This document shows positions 2,444 through 28,036 of a DNA stretch of 32,000 nucleotides, in pieces. The position numbers and the translations under genes are program-made. Numbering within the stretch: position 1 is the first letter of the stretch; the number at the start of each line of letters is the position of its first letter. The DNA lies in contig JAEOSH010000002.1 of the NCBI GenBank assembly GCA_016840465.1, forward strand, positions 30,001-62,000, read 5' to 3'. The notes beneath the pieces are model-generated. The model was not told where the DNA came from. It saw nothing but the letters and a program-made list of their open reading frames with translations, and did not search any database. Origin of the DNA: Candidatus Baldrarchaeum yapensis. GTDB lineage: Archaea; Asgardarchaeota; Baldrarchaeia; Baldrarchaeales; Baldrarchaeaceae.

Positions 2444-2531
2444 TGGTAGCCCGGCCGGGATTCGAACCCGGGTCCCCAGCTTTCTTCGGGGCTCCAAAGG
2501 CTGGGAGGCTTGGCCGCTACCCCACCGGGCT
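2444..2531 (-). tRNA. tRNA-Gln (anticodon TTG) with a 12-nt intron and encoded CCA
   Basis: Reverse complement folds as a cloverleaf: acceptor AGCCCGG/CCGGGCT, D arm GGGT/GCCT, anticodon stem CCAGC/GCTGG around CT-TTG-G, T arm CCGGG-TTCGAAT-CCCGG, then ACCA. The 88 nt equal 76 plus 12. Confidence 0.97.
2482..2493 (-). other. tRNA intron at canonical position 37/38 (AGCCCCGAAGAA)
   Basis: Central helix CUUU/GAAG with bulges GG^A and AA^A; removal restores a 7-nt anticodon loop. Confidence 0.9.
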
Positions 2532-9589: not shown

Positions 9590-10270
9590 TAGTTCTTCCG
9601 CTCTAATGATATACTCATTTGGTACGAGCCCCTTCTCACTTATGGGTATACCTTCTCTAGTCAATAGGTTCCACTTGTGCTGTACTCCATAACTATACCC
9701 ACCTAAACTTCTGTCCTTCATGATCACGCGATGGCAGGGAATCACCAACGGCAGCGGGTTCCTAGCCAATATGCGCGCCACTTTTCTTGCATACCTGTTA
9801 GTTCCTGCAATAACCTTAGAAATTTCGCCGTACGTTGTTACAAATCCTCTAGGAATTTTCATAGTTATTGATAACACTTCCTTGTCAAATCGAGGTATCT
9901 TGTCCATAATGTATACCTCTCTTTCGGAAAATTTTACCCCTCCACTTGTCCACGCCGACCATAGTTTGTAAATGTATTTTTCAGATCTTCTACGCAGATT
10001 TCGAGGAAGCTTAGAAATGGGAACAAAGTGTACATCCCTCGAATTTTTTATTGTTTTAAAGTATCTGTCTCTTATGTCTCTAAAGGCCAACATTGAAACA
10101 TTTAGCGGCCTCTGTATTCTGAATTTCTGCAAAACATTGAGAATGCACACGAGAGTGTCTTTTAAATCCAACATTGGTATAGTACTACACACGAGCCTTC
10201 CATCATCCGAGATACAAATTCCAATCCATGAGTTTTCTTTCCTTCCCGCTATGATGAACAGTTCATCCAT
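9563..10270 (-). CDS. ogt: Methylated-DNA--protein-cysteine methyltransferase
   Basis: IPRG-VTTYG HTH and NPLPLVIPCHRV active-site motif in the C-terminal half. Confidence 0.92.
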   Translation of the reverse strand: MDELFIIAGRKENSWIGICISDDGRLVCSTIPMLDLKDTLVCILNVLQKFRIQRPLNVSMLAFRDIRDRYFKTIKNSRDVHFVPISKLPRNLRRRSEKYIYKLWSAWTSGGVKFSEREVYIMDKIPRFDKEVLSITMKIPRGFVTTYGEISKVIAGTNRYARKVARILARNPLPLVIPCHRVIMKDRSLGGYSYGVQHKWNLLTREGIPISEKGLVPNEYIIRAEELLLLLSNPQ

Positions 10271-22974: not shown

Positions 22975-24771
22975 TTATTTCCGAGAACTCCTTTTTATTT
23001 TCATTATCTCGTTGAGTAACTCCAGTTCTTCGGATGATAATTCCTCAGAGAACTTTAATTTTAACGTTCTGATGTGTGGCTCCGGCACGTCGACATAAAT
23101 TATATCTCCTTCTTTTATGTGCCTACCGACTATGGCTTCCCTTATAGATATTGCAACTTCCATACCCGCGGTTGCTTCCCGAAGACTCTGACCTGCCTGT
23201 TGAATTTGCATTATTTGACCTATATATTTTCCACTTGATGTCATAAGGGGATACCTAGGTCGTATTCTTCCGACGAGTACCTTAACCCCCACGATTGCCG
23301 GCTTACTTCTCCTAAACACATAACCCGGCAGTATCATTATTTTTGCCGGCATTATTATCTTTTCTAATGTCAATTTCTTTTCTTCTTCTCGCTTCTTCGT
23401 AACCCAATTATCGTAATCCTCAAGTAGTTTGTAGATTATGTTGCTCCAAAATATTGGAATGTCATATTTTTTAGCTTCCTCTTCGGCGTCCGGCAAAATT
23501 TTTACGTTAAAAGCTAGTATTGCTGCTCGATATGGATCCTTTTCCATGACAACTACCGCTTCCATGACATCACGCTTTGATACATCGCCAATACCTGCAA
23601 GTCTTATTGGAACATCATGTCTCCGTAAGTAATTTACTAGCGCTTCTAGAGATCCCAAGGTATCCGCTTTTAAAACAACACCAACCTTATCTGTCGAAAT
23701 TATGATCTTCTTGACTTCCTTCTCAATCTCGTCAACTACGGATTGTAACTCTGATTCATCCCAGACCGCACGCATTGGAGAGCCAGCAACAGCGCCTTCG
23801 AGATTTGGAGCGACAAGTTTTACTCCTGCGGCTGCCACCACTTCATCTACCGGTGTGAACTTCTCACGAGGATCCCTTATTTCATCTAAAGGCTTTGGTA
23901 AAAGTATAGCACGAAGTTTTGTGACAATAGGTCCCTCTATTCCTCCTATTACGATGATATCATCCTTTCTCAGTACTCCATCGTAGATTATCGCATTCAC
24001 TGTTAAACCGAGTCCGAGTTCTTCCTTTACCTCGAGAATAACTCCTTTTGCCGGCCCTTCCTTAAATTCGAGTTGTTTTTTCATGTAGCGCTGAGTCAGA
24101 CCGGCGAGTACAAGTAAAAGTTCAGGTATCCCCTCCCCCGTTTTTGCACTTGTTGGGACGATGGCAACTGTTTTTGAGAAATCAGTAACTCTATCAAACC
24201 TTTCAGCGCTGAACCCGACGGCACTCAAGGACCCGACTATTTGGTATATTTTTTCGTCTAAGTACCTCCTGACGGCTGGATCTTGCAGTTTTATTGATTC
24301 TGTAAAGTATTGTGTGGGTCCGGGTCTCCACCCGGGGATCCTGTCTATTTTGTTTGCGGCAACTAAAAATGGAACTCGCCTTTCCTTCAAGATGTCTATG
24401 CATTCCCATGTTTGAGCTTGGAATCCCTCCATTATATCAACTACTAGTATTGCGAAGTCTGCAGCGGCTCCGCCCCTAACTCTAAGGTTGTAAAATGCCT
24501 CATGCCCTGGAGTATCTATGACTAGGATTCCTGGGATTGTCAACTTCACTTTATACATTTCCATGAGTTTGCCACAAATTTTCTCAATTACGGGGGATGG
24601 AAAGAAGGATGCACCAATGTGCTGGGTCTAGCATCAGGCCGTGGAAAACGGCCTGATTATGCCCCCAGCCTCTCTTTGTTGGACGGCCGTCCCACGGATT
24701 TTATCAAGCAATGAGGTCTTTCCATGATCTATATGTCCCAAAACAACGCATATGGGCTGCCTTAGACGCAT
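22975..24771 (-). CDS. infB: Translation initiation factor aIF5B (IF-2), two exons: 24771-24658 and 24627-22975; 588 aa after splicing
   Basis: Exon 1 (38 codons, SD GGTGAGGTGA) encodes [38 protein letters not shown]. Exon 2 begins [10 protein letters not shown] and carries DTPGHE, NKID and SAKTGEG. The 30 nt between them contain in-frame TGA and TAG. Confidence 0.95.
24628..24657 (-). other. BHB-type mRNA intron in infB (30 nt)
   Basis: GCUGGG/CCCAGC 6-bp exon helix, GGCA/UGCU central helix, bulges UA^A and AG^A, 9-bp intron stem UCAGGCCGU/ACGGCCUGA with loop UUUCC. Confidence 0.92.
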
Positions 24772-24821
24772 AAGATCACCTCACCAATTAGCGTTAAGAA
24801 AACAAAGAGTACTTAGGCAAG

Positions 24822-24835
24822 CAAAAATATTTTTG
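24822..24835. promoter_or_regulatory. Perfect 14-bp AT-rich palindrome CAAAAATATTTTTG upstream of infB (promoter or operator candidate)
   Basis: Lies in the ndk-infB intergenic gap about 50 nt upstream of the infB ATG. Confidence 0.3.
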
Positions 24836-24840
24836 GCTTA

Positions 24841-24856
24841 GGAAAAGAAGAAGAAA
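24841..24856 (-). terminator. Pyrimidine-rich tract after ndk (possible archaeal terminator)
   Basis: Minus strand reads TTTCTTCTTCTTTTCC just after the ndk stop. Confidence 0.3.
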
Positions 24857-24862
24857 TGACGT

Positions 24863-25315
24863 TTAATAAACCATTCTATCACTGCATCTCTCATACTCGT
24901 ATAGTTCATCATCGCTAAAGAATATTGACATTTCGTACTTTGCTCTCTCTACAGAGTCTGCAGCGTGAATTATGTTCTTCGTTAGATTTAGTCCAAAGTC
25001 CCCCCTTATAGTGCCGGGGCTTGCCTCTCTAGGATTTGTCGCTCCAATAAGTCTTCTAACGACCGATACTGCCTCCTCGCCTTCTATGACCATCGCAACT
25101 ACGGGACCTGAAGTAACAAATGAAACTAACTCATCGAAGAAATGCTTACCCTTATGTATATCGTAAAGACGTTCGGCTCTCTCTTTATCCAGCCAAACCA
25201 TTTTGAGAGCTACTACCTTAAGACCCTTGCGCTCGATTCTTGAAATTATCTCCCCTATGAGACCTCGTTGTACACCGTCAGGCTTTATCATTACAAAGGT
25301 TCTTTGTATTGCCAT
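24863..25315 (-). CDS. ndk: Nucleoside diphosphate kinase
   Basis: [31 protein letters not shown] (phospho-His). Confidence 0.97.
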
Positions 25316-25319
25316 TTAT

Positions 25320-25526
25320 TCACCCTCGTTTCTTCTCCTGTTCCCTTCCTCTCCAGAACTTCGTCCATTTGAATTTTCTAGGGTCTCTGCCCATCTCTAT
25401 CATGGATATCCTACATTTGCTACTGCAGAACCAGAGAACCCTGCCATCATTTTTTACGTACATCATCCCTGTCCCAGGCTCTATTTCCTTTCCACAGAAT
25501 GAACATTTTTGCCCACGTAACATCAC
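25320..25526 (-). CDS. rpl24e: 50S ribosomal protein L24e
   Basis: CSFCG.EIEPGTG, FCSSKC, PRKFKWT. Confidence 0.97.
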
Positions 25527-25553
25527 GATTACCTCTTAGCCTCGCTACTCAGT

Positions 25554-25769
25554 TCACCTTACTGTGATCTTTCGTGCTTCACGTTCGGTTTCTCTTAACA
25601 TTAATATATCGCCAAGTCTAACCGGACCCTTCACATTCCGGGTGAGAATCCTACCTTTATCCTTTCCTTCTAATATCCTTACACGTACCTGTATGACCTC
25701 ACCAGCAACTCCCGTTCTTCCGATGATTTGTATTACTTCCGCTGGCGTTCCTCTGTCCTCGCTGCTCAT
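25554..25769 (-). CDS. rps28e: 30S ribosomal protein S28e
   Basis: [28 protein letters not shown]. Confidence 0.97.
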
Positions 25770-25788
25770 GAAATACCACCTACTTCTC

Positions 25789-26160
25789 CTACTTCTTCAG
25801 CTCTTTTAATTTTCTTATTATGTCCTCTACGAGTTCTTTCGCATCTCCCGGATCTATTATGCACGCAGATGCTGCCTTTACATCTATGCCCGCAGCGGCA
25901 CCCAGCCTTTCCTTACTTGGCACGTAGATATATGGGATGTTCTTTTCCTCAGCTAGTGGTGGGAGATGCATGACTATTTCAGGAGGATCTACATCCTCCG
26001 CTATCAGTACAAGTTTTGCCTGACCTCTTTCTATAGCTTTTGTTGTCTCATTAGTCCCCTTCTTTATCTTACCCGTGTTTCTTGCTATTTCAAGCGCCTG
26101 ATACGCCTTTTCTGCAAGTTCCTTCGGGACCTCAAATTTTACATATGGGGGTTTTGCCAT
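25789..26160 (-). CDS. rpl7ae: 50S ribosomal protein L7Ae
   Basis: [31 protein letters not shown]. Confidence 0.98.
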
Positions 26161-26184
26161 TTTCTTCCTCCCTCCGGCGCCTTA

Positions 26185-26202
26185 TGCCTTCATGAGTCAG
26201 CA
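26185..26202 (-). promoter_or_regulatory. Putative K-loop (L7Ae-binding) in the rpl7ae 5' leader
   Basis: Leader reads UG-CUGA-CUCA-UGAAG-GCA: a box D-like CUGA, a short loop, then a box C-like UGAAG, about 25 nt upstream of the ATG. Confidence 0.45.
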
Positions 26203-26330
26203 GTGAAAAAAGGTAATCCATTAGTGTTTAAGAAAATTTCGTTGAGTGAACAGAATTTCGCATTTAATAGGTTCAAACTGAGGAAAAACTCTCCCTCTCT
26301 TCTTACCTTCACGTATTTAACTGATAGTTA

Positions 26331-27119
26331 TCAGATGATTATACGTGTGCCTTTAACACTTTCTCCGATCAATGCCTTTCTCAACAGGTCCGGTACGCCT
26401 CCATTTATGATTAACACCTCTTTGCATGATGTTCCTTTCAGTAACATGAGCGATTGTAACTTCCCAATGATCCCACCAGTTGCGTCACTCGGCTCCTGTC
26501 TTAGCAGTTTTACTAGGTCTCTAAGTTCATCAATTGAAATATTATCTATTAAGATCCGGCGCCTCTCGTCTTCCTTATACAAAAATATACCATCAACATC
26601 TGTCACAAAGATCGCTCGCTTGATGTTAAGATCTCTTACCACATTTACTAAGATTTTATCGCCAGATATTATCGAGAAACCATATGATACGTCTAAAACG
26701 ACATCACCAAATAGTACGGGCGTTAGTCCCATCTCTAACACACGCTTAATAACTGTGACATCAAAGTAGGTAACTTCGCCTTTGTCCATTACAACAAACG
26801 ACGATGGTTGCAACGAAAAAACATTAATTCCAGCATTTTCCAACGCTTTGACGACAATATCGTTAAGAATCAGCATCGCCTTACGAACTTCATGAACCAT
26901 GCCACTCCATTCTTTCCCTTTCACTATTTTTTCGGCTAATTGATATTTGATTGCAAGAGGATGACCAAATGATCCTCCGCCATGTATCACAATTACCCTC
27001 TTACCAGATTCTGCAAGTTCGGAACAAAGTCTTTCAAGGACTTCTTTGTTTACGCTCCACGGCTTCCTTTTATTAGTTATTATACTTCCACCGAGTTTTA
27101 CTGCTATGATGTCCTTCAA
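26331..27119 (-). CDS. Isopentenyl phosphate kinase (amino-acid kinase fold)
   Basis: KLGGSIIT.K, IHGGGSFGH, PVLFGD, SGD, TDVDG, DATGGI.GK. Confidence 0.9.
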   Translation of the reverse strand: MKDIIAVKLGGSIITNKRKPWSVNKEVLERLCSELAESGKRVIVIHGGGSFGHPLAIKYQLAEKIVKGKEWSGMVHEVRKAMLILNDIVVKALENAGINVFSLQPSSFVVMDKGEVTYFDVTVIKRVLEMGLTPVLFGDVVLDVSYGFSIISGDKILVNVVRDLNIKRAIFVTDVDGIFLYKEDERRRILIDNISIDELRDLVKLLRQEPSDATGGIIGKLQSLMLLKGTSCKEVLIINGGVPDLLRKALIGESVKGTRIII

Positions 27120-27146
27120 GAAACTTCTCCCTAGTTTTTAGTTCTA

Positions 27147-27773
27147 TTACGTTTGCACAGGCTTTTGAGGTATTATTTTCGTCTCAAATTCCTCTACTGG
27201 GATTGGAAGATCTCCATCGGGTGGTATTGCTCCACGTTCGCGTAGGATTTGTCTCGCAAGTAACCAATAGATGAGAGACAACGCTTTTCTTCCCTTATTA
27301 TTCGTGGGAATCACAAGATCTATGTATGCAGTATTCGCATCCGTGTCGCAGAGGGCAACTATTGGGATTCTGGCATCAACGGCTTCTTGAACTGCTTGCC
27401 TATCTGCTCTCGGATCCGTAATTATTATCACGTCTGCCTCAACGTAATATTTGGAAGACGGGTTTGTTAAAGTCCCCGGAATAAACCTTCCGGGGATGGC
27501 TATTGCCCCGACAACTTCAGCGAACTTTTTAACCGGTCTTTGTCCATACTGCCTTGCAGACACTGCAAGAATCTTTGATGGCTCAAATCTTGATAGGAAT
27601 TTCGCTGCAATACGGATTCTTTCATCGGTTTTTCTGACATCAAGCACATACAGACCGTCTGGACGTGTTCGATATATGTACTGTGCCATATATCCGGTCT
27701 TTATTTTCGTCCCTATGTGGACTCCTGCTGCAAGATATTGATCCAAAGGAACTAACAGAGTATCGCTACTCAT
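27147..27773 (-). CDS. rps2: 30S ribosomal protein S2
   Basis: [37 protein letters not shown]. Confidence 0.97.
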
Positions 27774-28036
27774 ATTCCATCTCCTCTTCAGCTTCTTCCT
27801 CCCTGGCAGGCGGGAAACTGAACTTCAATACTTCATCTATCAACTCCACATGGCTCAATAACATTCTTCTACAACAATATCTTTTTAATCCTAAATCATC
27901 AAGGACTTTTTTCGGGTCTTCACCACTTTCAACTCTTTTCTTGAACTCTTCCCATTTATCAGCAATAACCTTACCACATGTAAAGCTTCCCGCCACCGAC
28001 GGAAATTCGTCGGTGGTATCGGACCGGGATTATCAT
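27766..28036 (-). CDS. rpoN: RNA polymerase subunit Rpo10 (RpoN), two exons: 28036-28018 and 27986-27766; 79 aa after splicing
   Basis: Exon 1 ATG ATA ATC CCG GTC CGA T (SD AGGGTGA) plus exon 2 GC TTT ACA TGT GGT AAG gives MIIPVRCFTCGK. It continues with [17 protein letters not shown] and ends in an acidic tail. Confidence 0.95.
27987..28017 (-). other. BHB-type mRNA intron in rpoN (31 nt)
   Basis: UCCG/CGGG central helix, bulges AU^A and AA^G, 9-bp intron stem CCACCGACG/CGUCGGUGG with loop AAUUUC, and a short 2-bp exon helix (G-C, G.U). Confidence 0.9.

Follow-up and report, generated by a model that had tools for sequence, protein, structure and literature searches.

BHB-type micro-introns predicted in the aIF5B and rpoN pre-mRNAs of Candidatus Baldrarchaeum yapensis

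Known systems and their likeness to the present introns

The cbf5 pre-mRNA of Aeropyrum and Sulfolobus reportedly carries an intron, which Watanabe in 2002 and Yoshinari in 2006 are said to have described. In Crenarchaeota possessing an (alpha-beta)2 EndA, the cbf5 pre-mRNA is spliced by the tRNA-splicing endonuclease (PMC2738675; PMC10485636). In reviews, the archaeal messages spliced by this enzyme number only two, cbf5 and a haloarchaeal mRNA, and more are expected (PMC10485636). Herein, we report introns of this kind in aIF5B (infB) and rpoN, found in a stretch of 32,000 nucleotides of Candidatus Baldrarchaeum yapensis contig JAEOSH010000002.1 (hereafter, the window). Like the cbf5 intron (Yokobori 2009, PMC2738675), they combine a BHB or relaxed BHB motif in coding sequence with a most likely hetero-oligomeric EndA, and introns of this kind were gained and lost among relatives. 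Unlike the cbf5 system with its single intron, the present one counts at least seven in a genome, hosted by aIF5B, rpoN and five other genes; its cbf5 gene is uninterrupted. It should also be kept in mind that cbf5 splicing was shown experimentally, whereas splicing of aIF5B and rpoN is predicted.

Several other systems invite comparison. The tRNA micro-introns of intron-rich archaea (Thermoproteales-type; Fujishima and Kanai, PMC4033280) share the size class, G+C-rich hairpin, A-rich bulges and enzyme, but here the host is an mRNA, so that splicing must keep the reading frame and codons constrain the exon halves of the helices. The HVO_1309 mRNA of Haloferax volcanii (Schwarz 2020, PMC7714728; PMC10485636) is likewise a BHB-motif message and a substrate of the splicing endonuclease; however, that case concerns one gene of a euryarchaeon with an alpha2 enzyme. 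Homing-endonuclease BHB introns of crenarchaeal rRNA genes, as well as inteins, occupy highly conserved functional sites, as the present micro-introns do. Unlike the homing rRNA introns, those of the window are 30–31 nt long and lack an ORF, while inteins are removed at the protein level. Finally, HAC1/XBP1 splicing (IRE1 plus RtcB or tRNA ligase) resembles our case in having a structure-defined, spliceosome-independent mRNA intron, a tRNA-ligase pathway and an inactive product upon retention, but it is regulated by a stress-sensor nuclease, whereas neither a sensor nor a dependence on conditions is evident in the present case.

Seven or more such introns in one lineage, with three class-wide and backed by covariation, would mean that the tRNA machinery can splice mRNAs as a matter of routine and not as a curiosity. 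There is a practical side as well: gene callers truncate or split such genes, including the universal markers aIF5B and RpoN, which distorts annotation, pseudogene counts and marker-based completeness.

Two interrupted genes in the window

The features of both genes are given below; the splice point is marked by ^ throughout.

24771-24658, minus strand: aIF5B exon 1, 38 codons, ATG at 24771-24769, P-loop GHIDHGKT, ending in REAGGI
24657-24628, minus strand: aIF5B BHB intron, 30 nt, phase 0, first base A, last bases AG, in-frame UGA and UAG
24627-22975, minus strand: aIF5B exon 2, 550 codons plus stop, beginning TQHIGAS
24621-24669, minus strand: complete hBHBh' motif in the pre-mRNA of aIF5B, with GCUGGG/CCCAGC forming the exon helix, GGCA/UGCU the central helix, UA^A and AG^A the bulges, and 8-9 bp in the intron stem
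28036-28018, minus strand: rpoN exon 1, 6 codons plus 1 nt (ATG ATA ATC CCG GUC CGA U), encoding MIIPVR and the first base of the Cys codon
28017-27987, minus strand: rpoN BHB intron of 31 nt, splitting the Cys codon in phase 1 (U^GC), first base A, last bases AA, frameshifting
27986-27766, minus strand: rpoN exon 2, GC of the Cys codon, then 10 residues..., stop at 27766-27768
27984-28025, minus strand: relaxed BHB (HBh') in the pre-mRNA of rpoN, with UCCG/CGGG forming the central helix, AU^A and AA^G the bulges, 9 bp in the intron stem and only 2 bp in the exon-exon helix

The aIF5B gene, preceded by what reads as a Shine-Dalgarno-like GGTGA 7 nt upstream of its ATG, is split between Ile38 and Thr39, and cuts at the canonical BHB positions give back GGI^TQHIGA. 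The two exons match consecutive stretches of the Pfam GTP_EFTU profile, with exon 1 covering positions 4–30 and exon 2 covering positions 69–184, followed by GTP_EFTU_D2, IF-2 and GTP_EFTU_D4. In rpoN, the insert interrupts the codon of the first zinc cysteine, and canonical cuts give back MIIPVR^CFTCGK. Exon 2 matches positions 7–58 of the 58 positions of RNA_pol_N, the match beginning at its first residue, and uninterrupted orthologs show MIIPVRCFTCGK. Both genes are single-copy. The earlier note had described two BHB introns of 30 and 31 nt lying 3.3 kb apart, and a direct reading of the DNA bears this out. Its statement that retention blocks the product is also upheld: translation of unspliced aIF5B would stop after 45 residues, and unspliced rpoN shifts frame and meets a stop 15 codons beyond the splice site. 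As it had foreseen, such introns are hidden as truncated gene calls, aIF5B being called as 527/529 aa and RpoN as 76 aa from a GTG start; the protein collection has no full-length spliced aIF5B or RpoN on record, a point against splicing.

Both inserts show two 3-nt bulges on opposite strands with a 4-bp helix between them, in a complete motif in aIF5B and in a relaxed one in rpoN, the latter being classed as relaxed because its exon-exon helix h comprises only 2 bp. When each bulge is cut behind its second base and the ends are joined, both genes read in a register identical to that of uninterrupted orthologs. The single-sequence MFE fold of aIF5B is exactly the hBHBh' (-32.2 kcal/mol, z = -3.7). 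In rpoN, the MFE favours a register neighbouring the BHB register UCCG/CGGG, which like the 2-bp helix counts against the intron reading, but covariation backs the BHB register. It is important to note that a BHB-like descriptor taken alone does not rise above chance, with 3029 matches versus 3108 in reversed-sequence controls and 38 versus 36 in the mirror-geometry control. What carries weight is that frame and motif are restored exactly, that relatives have introns at identical positions and that paired bases change in a compensatory way.

Conservation, further introns and splicing enzymes

The uncultured class comprises only five species-level genomes, namely this one and four of a sister genus; the protein clusters nearest to it bear the labels Bathyarchaeota and Thermoproteota. 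Both introns are present at identical sites in all five, with differing lengths and stem sequences: in the four sister-genus genomes, the aIF5B intron is 33 nt long and the rpoN intron 43–46 nt. For aIF5B, 96.9% of cells are paired, against 18–38% in slid controls, with four compensatory pairs; the corresponding values for rpoN are 96%, 34–46% and ten pairs. None of 500 shuffles reached the covariation score, which is indicative given only five related sequences, the slid-partner controls being the stronger ones. The aIF5B intron is also identical in independent assemblies from two different samples. In 36 other genomes of the phylum, the aIF5B ortholog runs through this site as GGITQHIGA, and outside the class rpoN is uninterrupted at its site in 24 of 25 further relatives whose loci were read at the motif.

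A genome scan combined with homology yielded five more mRNA introns of 28–32 nt; either a profile match that continues across the splice or colinearity with orthologs lacking the insert confirmed each of them:

POR-gamma: PF01558 positions 1-123 and 129-173 on either side of the splice
pcm (PCMT): profile positions 2-59 and 61-208 on either side of the splice
UPF0147: profile positions 2-61 and 64-81 on either side of the splice
radical-SAM gene: the join reads CNFTCP^WCQN
GlcD-like oxidase: FAD_binding_4 positions 1-105, then FAD-oxidase_C

Together with the window pair, the protein-coding genes of this genome thus contain at least seven micro-introns of 28–32 nt. This agrees with the expectation that more would be present genome-wide, which extends to relatives as well. 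Three introns are common to the class and the remaining ones are lineage-specific. In pcm, a synonymous exon change GCA>GCG is matched by GGUG>GGCG in the intron. POR-gamma is interrupted at VL^NT in this genome only and at GAE^RRG in the sister genus only, while UPF0147 and the radical-SAM gene are interrupted in this genome only.

As to the enzymes, whose presence the earlier note had wished to see checked, the genome encodes RtcB (a match of 609 bits) and two EndA paralogs. The nearest relative of the catalytic alpha subunit is that of Aeropyrum pernix (3P1Z_B); the second paralog, although complete in both domains, has no catalytic His. The endonuclease is therefore most likely a heterotetramer of the catalytic alpha subunit and the His-less structural paralog, an assembly that we infer from these two proteins and that would be of a type accepting non-canonical sites. 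The tRNA genes of this genome, too, hold inserts of 27–29 nt shaped like the micro-introns, as next to the T-arm.

Overall, we consider it likely that both inserts are genuine archaeal BHB introns in pre-mRNAs, cut by EndA and joined by RtcB, and that they belong to the population of at least seven introns. The pre-mRNA would fold into two 3-nt bulges flanking a 4-bp helix, the tRNA-splicing endonuclease would sever each bulge behind its second base, and RtcB would ligate the exons. This would give back the codon of the first zinc Cys in RpoN and, in aIF5B, the codon context of the switch-I Thr, and would probably release a circle of 30 or 31 nt. Splicing would most likely be constitutive, though a role for the unspliced form is conceivable. 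The introns would persist because only an exact deletion is tolerable at such conserved codons. We place them as new members in the class of cbf5-type pre-mRNA introns, of which this one lineage has an unusually large number.

The architecture shared by the window introns, to which the earlier note gave much weight, is real: besides the common first A and bulges, each has a G+C-rich stem of 9 bp, unrelated in sequence to the other, and UUUCC at the loop. However, this common look, with its leading A, bulges rich in A, a single G+C-rich hairpin and a length of about 30 nt, is that of a minimal EndA substrate and not a dedicated regulatory design. Three of this genome's seven introns contain UUUCC, whereas the sister genus lacks it in every orthologous intron. 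In the same way, the 5'-proximal placement holds for aIF5B and rpoN but does not extend to a general 5' bias among the introns.

Mobile origin, regulation and other explanations

It is possible, and compatible with the present function proposed above, that the micro-introns derive as minimal remnants from mobile elements homing into conserved sites, or travel on such elements as hitch-hikers. A homing-endonuclease ORF would have been lost, or the introns would have spread by reverse splicing and recombination, as proposed for tRNA-intron transposition. The turnover of introns between sister lineages in POR-gamma, UPF0147 and the radical-SAM gene points in this direction. Moreover, true inteins of other genomes lie at or beside two micro-intron sites, both outside the window: the radical-SAM intron is 2 nt from the intein (PF14890) position of a sister genome, and the aIF5B P-loop site K^T, occupied by introns in two other families, is exactly where another archaeon has a LAGLIDADG intein inserted. 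The I^T site of aIF5B is itself occupied in a different class (family f20). Such site sharing, however, may only mirror the best retention of any insertion where imprecise loss is lethal, and the introns have no common sequence beyond structural requirements. The longer, endonuclease-coding alleles anticipated in relatives did not turn up: among the loci read in 40 relatives, no allele at the two window sites exceeds 46 nt or carries an endonuclease ORF, and the same search for aIF5B in a 131-genome phylum sample found no longer insert or such ORF. As far as these relatives show, the introns do not qualify as homing introns with an own or allelic LAGLIDADG ORF; they measure 30–46 nt in all five class genomes. 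What stands of the claim for mobile remnants is thus circumstantial.

Introns interrupt aIF5B in 13 of 126 genomes sampled, recurrently in GTPase motifs and in several lineages. This recurrence across lineages exceeds what a purely neutral model would predict, and we count it against our preferred explanation. Together with the sharing of intein sites, it offers a concrete system for studying the spread of protein-less BHB introns.

It appears unlikely that aIF5B and rpoN splicing is a rate-limiting or condition-dependent step through which EndA and RtcB capacity would gate translation initiation and transcription in a manner similar to HAC1/XBP1. One might cite in favour of such a checkpoint that the three class-wide introns include one translation and one transcription gene, that aIF5B GTPase motifs are interrupted again and again, and that a retained intron abolishes the product. 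The remaining hosts, however, are repair and metabolic genes and others (pcm, POR-gamma, radical-SAM gene, UPF0147, GlcD-like oxidase) that follow no translation or transcription logic, the rpoN-site intron is not kept outside the class in 24 of the 25 loci read, no sensor domain or special nuclease is evident, and UUUCC, a possible binding site, is missing from all orthologous introns. The checkpoint put forward in the earlier note thus gained no positive evidence.

A more speculative and quite improbable idea is that the micro-introns are cheap site occupiers: an insert of about 30 nt, placed inside or a few bases from the conserved target of an intein or intron homing endonuclease (aIF5B P-loop, radical-SAM CxxxCxxC), would break its recognition sequence and immunise the gene against invasion, while the tRNA-splicing enzymes would remove it at little cost. 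If true, this would explain the recurrence at conserved motifs, the sharing of intein sites and the long retention.

It is hardly credible that the inserts are assembly errors, pseudogenes, or sites of programmed frameshifting or stop-codon readthrough, since, although gene callers render both genes N-terminally truncated and the genome is a MAG of 100 contigs, the insert recurs identically in independent assemblies, both genes are single-copy and essential, the inserts are kept in five genomes with compensatory pairs, and neither readthrough nor a simple +1/-1 frameshift can restore proteins from an aIF5B insert with two different switch-I stops and an rpoN insert of 31 nt. The same two in-frame stops and the same length rule out that either insert is an intein.

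A last observation concerns timing. Translation and transcription are coupled in archaea, and a 5'-proximal intron would have to be removed before ribosomes arrive, which we also count against our preferred explanation. The two introns make this long-standing question, the removal of a 5'-end intron under coupled transcription-translation, a testable one.

Interruption of the aIF5B and rpoN genes

On the minus strand, the genes follow one another in the order rpoN, rps2, an amino-acid-kinase-family gene, rpl7ae, rps28e, rpl24e, ndk, aIF5B, rps6e and aIF2-gamma. Both aIF5B and rpoN are single-copy in the source genome, and both are interrupted:

28036-28018, minus strand: rpoN exon 1, ATG at 28036, MIIPVR plus one base
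28017-27987, minus strand: rpoN insert, 31 nt
from 27986, minus strand: rpoN exon 2, GC UUU ACA UGU..., giving C-F-T-C-G-K
24771-24658, minus strand: aIF5B exon 1, ATG at 24771, 38 codons, ending ...REAGGI
24657-24628, minus strand: aIF5B insert, 30 nt, with in-frame UGA and UAG
24627 to 22975, minus strand: aIF5B exon 2, TQHIGAS... onward, 550 codons

Exon 1 of aIF5B matches positions 4-30 of the GTP_EFTU profile and exon 2 positions 69-184; exon 2 of rpoN matches positions 7-58 of 58 in RNA_pol_N, starting from its very first residue. On direct reading, the earlier note proved correct in its coordinates and lengths, the terminal bases, the 9-bp stems and the UUUCC motifs. Its suggestion that such introns are hidden as shortened gene calls also holds: gene callers conceal them, and the database entries are a 527/529-aa aIF5B and a 76-aa RpoN starting at GTG.

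The minimum free energy structure of the aIF5B region is a textbook hBHBh' bulge-helix-bulge (BHB) motif (z = -3.7), composed of an exon-exon helix GCUGGG/CCCAGC, a 4-bp helix GGCA/UGCU, the bulges UA^A and AG^A (^ marks the interruption) and an intron hairpin of 8-9 bp. In rpoN, a 4-bp helix UCCG/CGGG, the bulges AU^A and AA^G and a 9-bp hairpin are accompanied by two exon-exon pairs only. This is a relaxed BHB form, of the sort accepted by broad-specificity endonucleases.

The BHB motif by itself is not above chance. A strict micro-BHB descriptor found 3029 sites genome-wide versus 3108 on the reversed sequence, with nearly identical energy tails that parted (6 versus 1) only at <= -22 kcal/mol, and adding codon-usage frame tests to a relaxed descriptor left 38 loci versus 36 with a mirror-geometry control. 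As the relaxed matches lay mostly at ordinary gene junctions, the descriptor scan without homology was dropped as a census tool. The weight of the evidence therefore rests on residue restoration, copy number, conservation in the class, pairing and independent assemblies. With cleavage at the canonical bonds, both genes regain exactly the residues of uninterrupted orthologs: in 36 other genomes of the phylum GGITQHIGA runs through the aIF5B site without a break, and of 25 loci from other relatives read at the rpoN motif, 24 have an unbroken MIIPVRCFTCGK. The GTDB class of the source genome consists of five species-level genomes only, and all five carry both introns at exactly the same sites with differing stem sequences, those of the sister genus being 33 nt (aIF5B) and 43-46 nt (rpoN) long. 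In the alignments, the named structure is paired at 96.9% (aIF5B) and 96.0% (rpoN), compared with 18-46% when partners are slid, and four (aIF5B) and ten (rpoN) pairs have changed on both sides. An assembly artefact is ruled out, because assemblies of two separate samples contain the identical intron sequence. Searches for spliced products or alleles lacking the intron, made in collections built mostly from DNA assemblies, returned no match to 24-mers spanning the predicted aIF5B and rpoN junctions among metagenome contigs and no full-length product among protein clusters.

Further mRNA introns and the splicing enzymes

The earlier note also expected more mRNA introns elsewhere in the genome. 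Strict-scan hits, ranked by energy, filtered for reading-frame restoration and then checked by homology, add five.

Additional mRNA introns of the source genome
pcm: 32 nt, PCMT profile 2-59 before and 61-208 after the intron
POR gamma subunit: 28 nt, PF01558 1-123 and 129-173
UPF0147: 29 nt, profile 2-61 and 64-81; colinear, once spliced, with uninterrupted orthologs in 4/4 sister genomes
radical-SAM gene: 29 nt, split within CNFTCP^WCQN
GlcD-like oxidase: 30 nt, one mismatch in the central helix

The total thus comes to at least seven introns of 28-32 nt, all starting with A and having A-rich bulges; the figure is a minimum, since without homology imperfect motifs are inseparable from chance. 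The common "architecture" proposed from the two window introns is best explained as that of a minimal substrate. A position close to the 5' end is not general; the other introns fall between roughly codon 58 and codon 150. The UUUCC motif, proposed as a shared feature, does occur in both window introns; UUUCC or UUUUCC stands at the hairpin loop in only three of the seven (two on contig C67, plus C56:106639-106666), which exceeds the few percent expected per 30-mer, but UUUCC is found in none of the orthologous sister-genus introns, and its recurrence may be due to chance. The classic archaeal host of an mRNA intron, cbf5, is uninterrupted in this genome (C67:87090-87431, a 339-aa open frame with TruB_N positions 1-149).

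EndA, the tRNA-splicing endonuclease on which the earlier note made the mechanism depend, is encoded by two paralogs, each with N-terminal and catalytic-type domains; the exon ligase RtcB is encoded as well. For the first paralog, the closest match is 3P1Z_B, the catalytic subunit in the Aeropyrum pernix heterotetramer; the second has no catalytic histidine. Judged by sequence, such a pair matches what is seen in (alpha-beta)2 enzymes, and it is enzymes of this type that cleave non-canonical sites (PMC5829648).

Turnover, recurrence and origin of the introns

Three introns (aIF5B, rpoN and pcm) are common to the source genome and its sister genus. In pcm, a synonymous exon change from GCA to GCG is compensated by an intron change from GGUG to GGCG. 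Other positions vary: POR-gamma is interrupted at VL^NT in the source genome only and at GAE^RRG in the sister genus only, the UPF0147 interruption is confined to the source genome as compared with the four sister genomes, and one sister genome has an uninterrupted radical-SAM gene. The radical-SAM ortholog of a second sister genome, G002 (L078:1-1500, just upstream of 119220 on contig C17), contains an intein (Pfam Intein_splicing), which ends directly before the Cys of CQNW, one codon from the site of the 29-nt BHB intron in the source genome.

A survey of aIF5B in 131 sampled genomes of the phylum, 126 of them with a match, revealed an interrupted G domain in 13. Five of these are the five class genomes, interrupted at I^T, and both genomes of family f20 (2/2) have a 29-nt BHB insert at this very site. 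Five more, from two families, are interrupted between K and T of the P-loop, with inserts of 29 nt in genus g8 (3/3 genomes) and 32-33 nt in genus g16 (2/3). A third position is interrupted in one genome; G058 has a putative insert of ~30 nt near residues 56-62.

Loci of aIF5B interruptions in other families
L013, L014 (around 1340-1370)
L035
L099:60-100
L096:140-180
L097:125-165
L098

In an unrelated, uncultured archaeon (L004:4267-5859, CAYMEG010000014.1), a 531-codon in-frame LAGLIDADG intein follows GHVDHGK in the aIF5B P-loop, at the very K^T position where two further families of the phylum have micro-introns of 29-33 nt.

Such evidence is best accounted for if the inserts are ordinary BHB introns of the cbf5 kind, whose splicing is predicted and whose constitutive splicing is only probable. 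On this reading they are numerous in a lineage with an endonuclease tolerant of many contexts, and they persist because codons of this sort permit no loss other than an exact deletion. In the literature searched, the archaeal mRNAs described as substrates of the splicing endonuclease are cbf5 and HVO_1309 only (PMC2738675, PMC7714728, PMC10485636); the introns are therefore new cases of a known kind, and the set, with splicing predicted, is notable for its number, host genes and conservation. Their origin as remnants of mobile elements, one of two readings in the earlier note, is compatible with the turnover between lineages and with the sites shared with inteins, although an endonuclease-coding allele was not found. 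Its other reading, a splicing checkpoint that would couple EndA/RtcB activity to transcription and translation capacity, is a remote possibility; no positive evidence speaks for it, and it does not suit the genes in which the other introns lie. Readthrough was dropped as an explanation: the Stop or Pyl labels that ARAGORN in intron mode gives to several source-genome tRNAs are miscalls.

Rejected and doubtful candidates

Four candidates in the source genome (C69:14041-14072, C78:17785-17815, C99:4132-4163 and C73:5950-5985) were rejected as introns, their junction peptides being junk. Nor is there an intron at C12 27061-27096, which is ordinary Sir2 coding sequence, or on the plus strand of C60 at 10179-10210, where a surplus G in a G-run within the LSGG signature throws an ABC-transporter ATPase gene out of frame, either through a sequencing error or because it is a pseudogene. 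A weak, G-U-rich BHB-like element of 28 nt (C52:28484-28511) lies between a complete GlcD-like ORF and a GlcF-like (Fer4_8 + CCG) ORF; it could be a candidate intron making a GlcD-GlcF-like fusion, or the motif may have arisen by chance where the two ORFs of an operon meet.

A tRNA-Gly(CCC) of 88 nt was called by ARAGORN in the window at 2444-2531 (minus strand; Rfam match 2447-2531). With the intron option its label changes to 'tRNA-Stop (tta)', apparently an artefact of misplacement. The gene probably contains a short intron, as 88 nt exceeds a standard tRNA.
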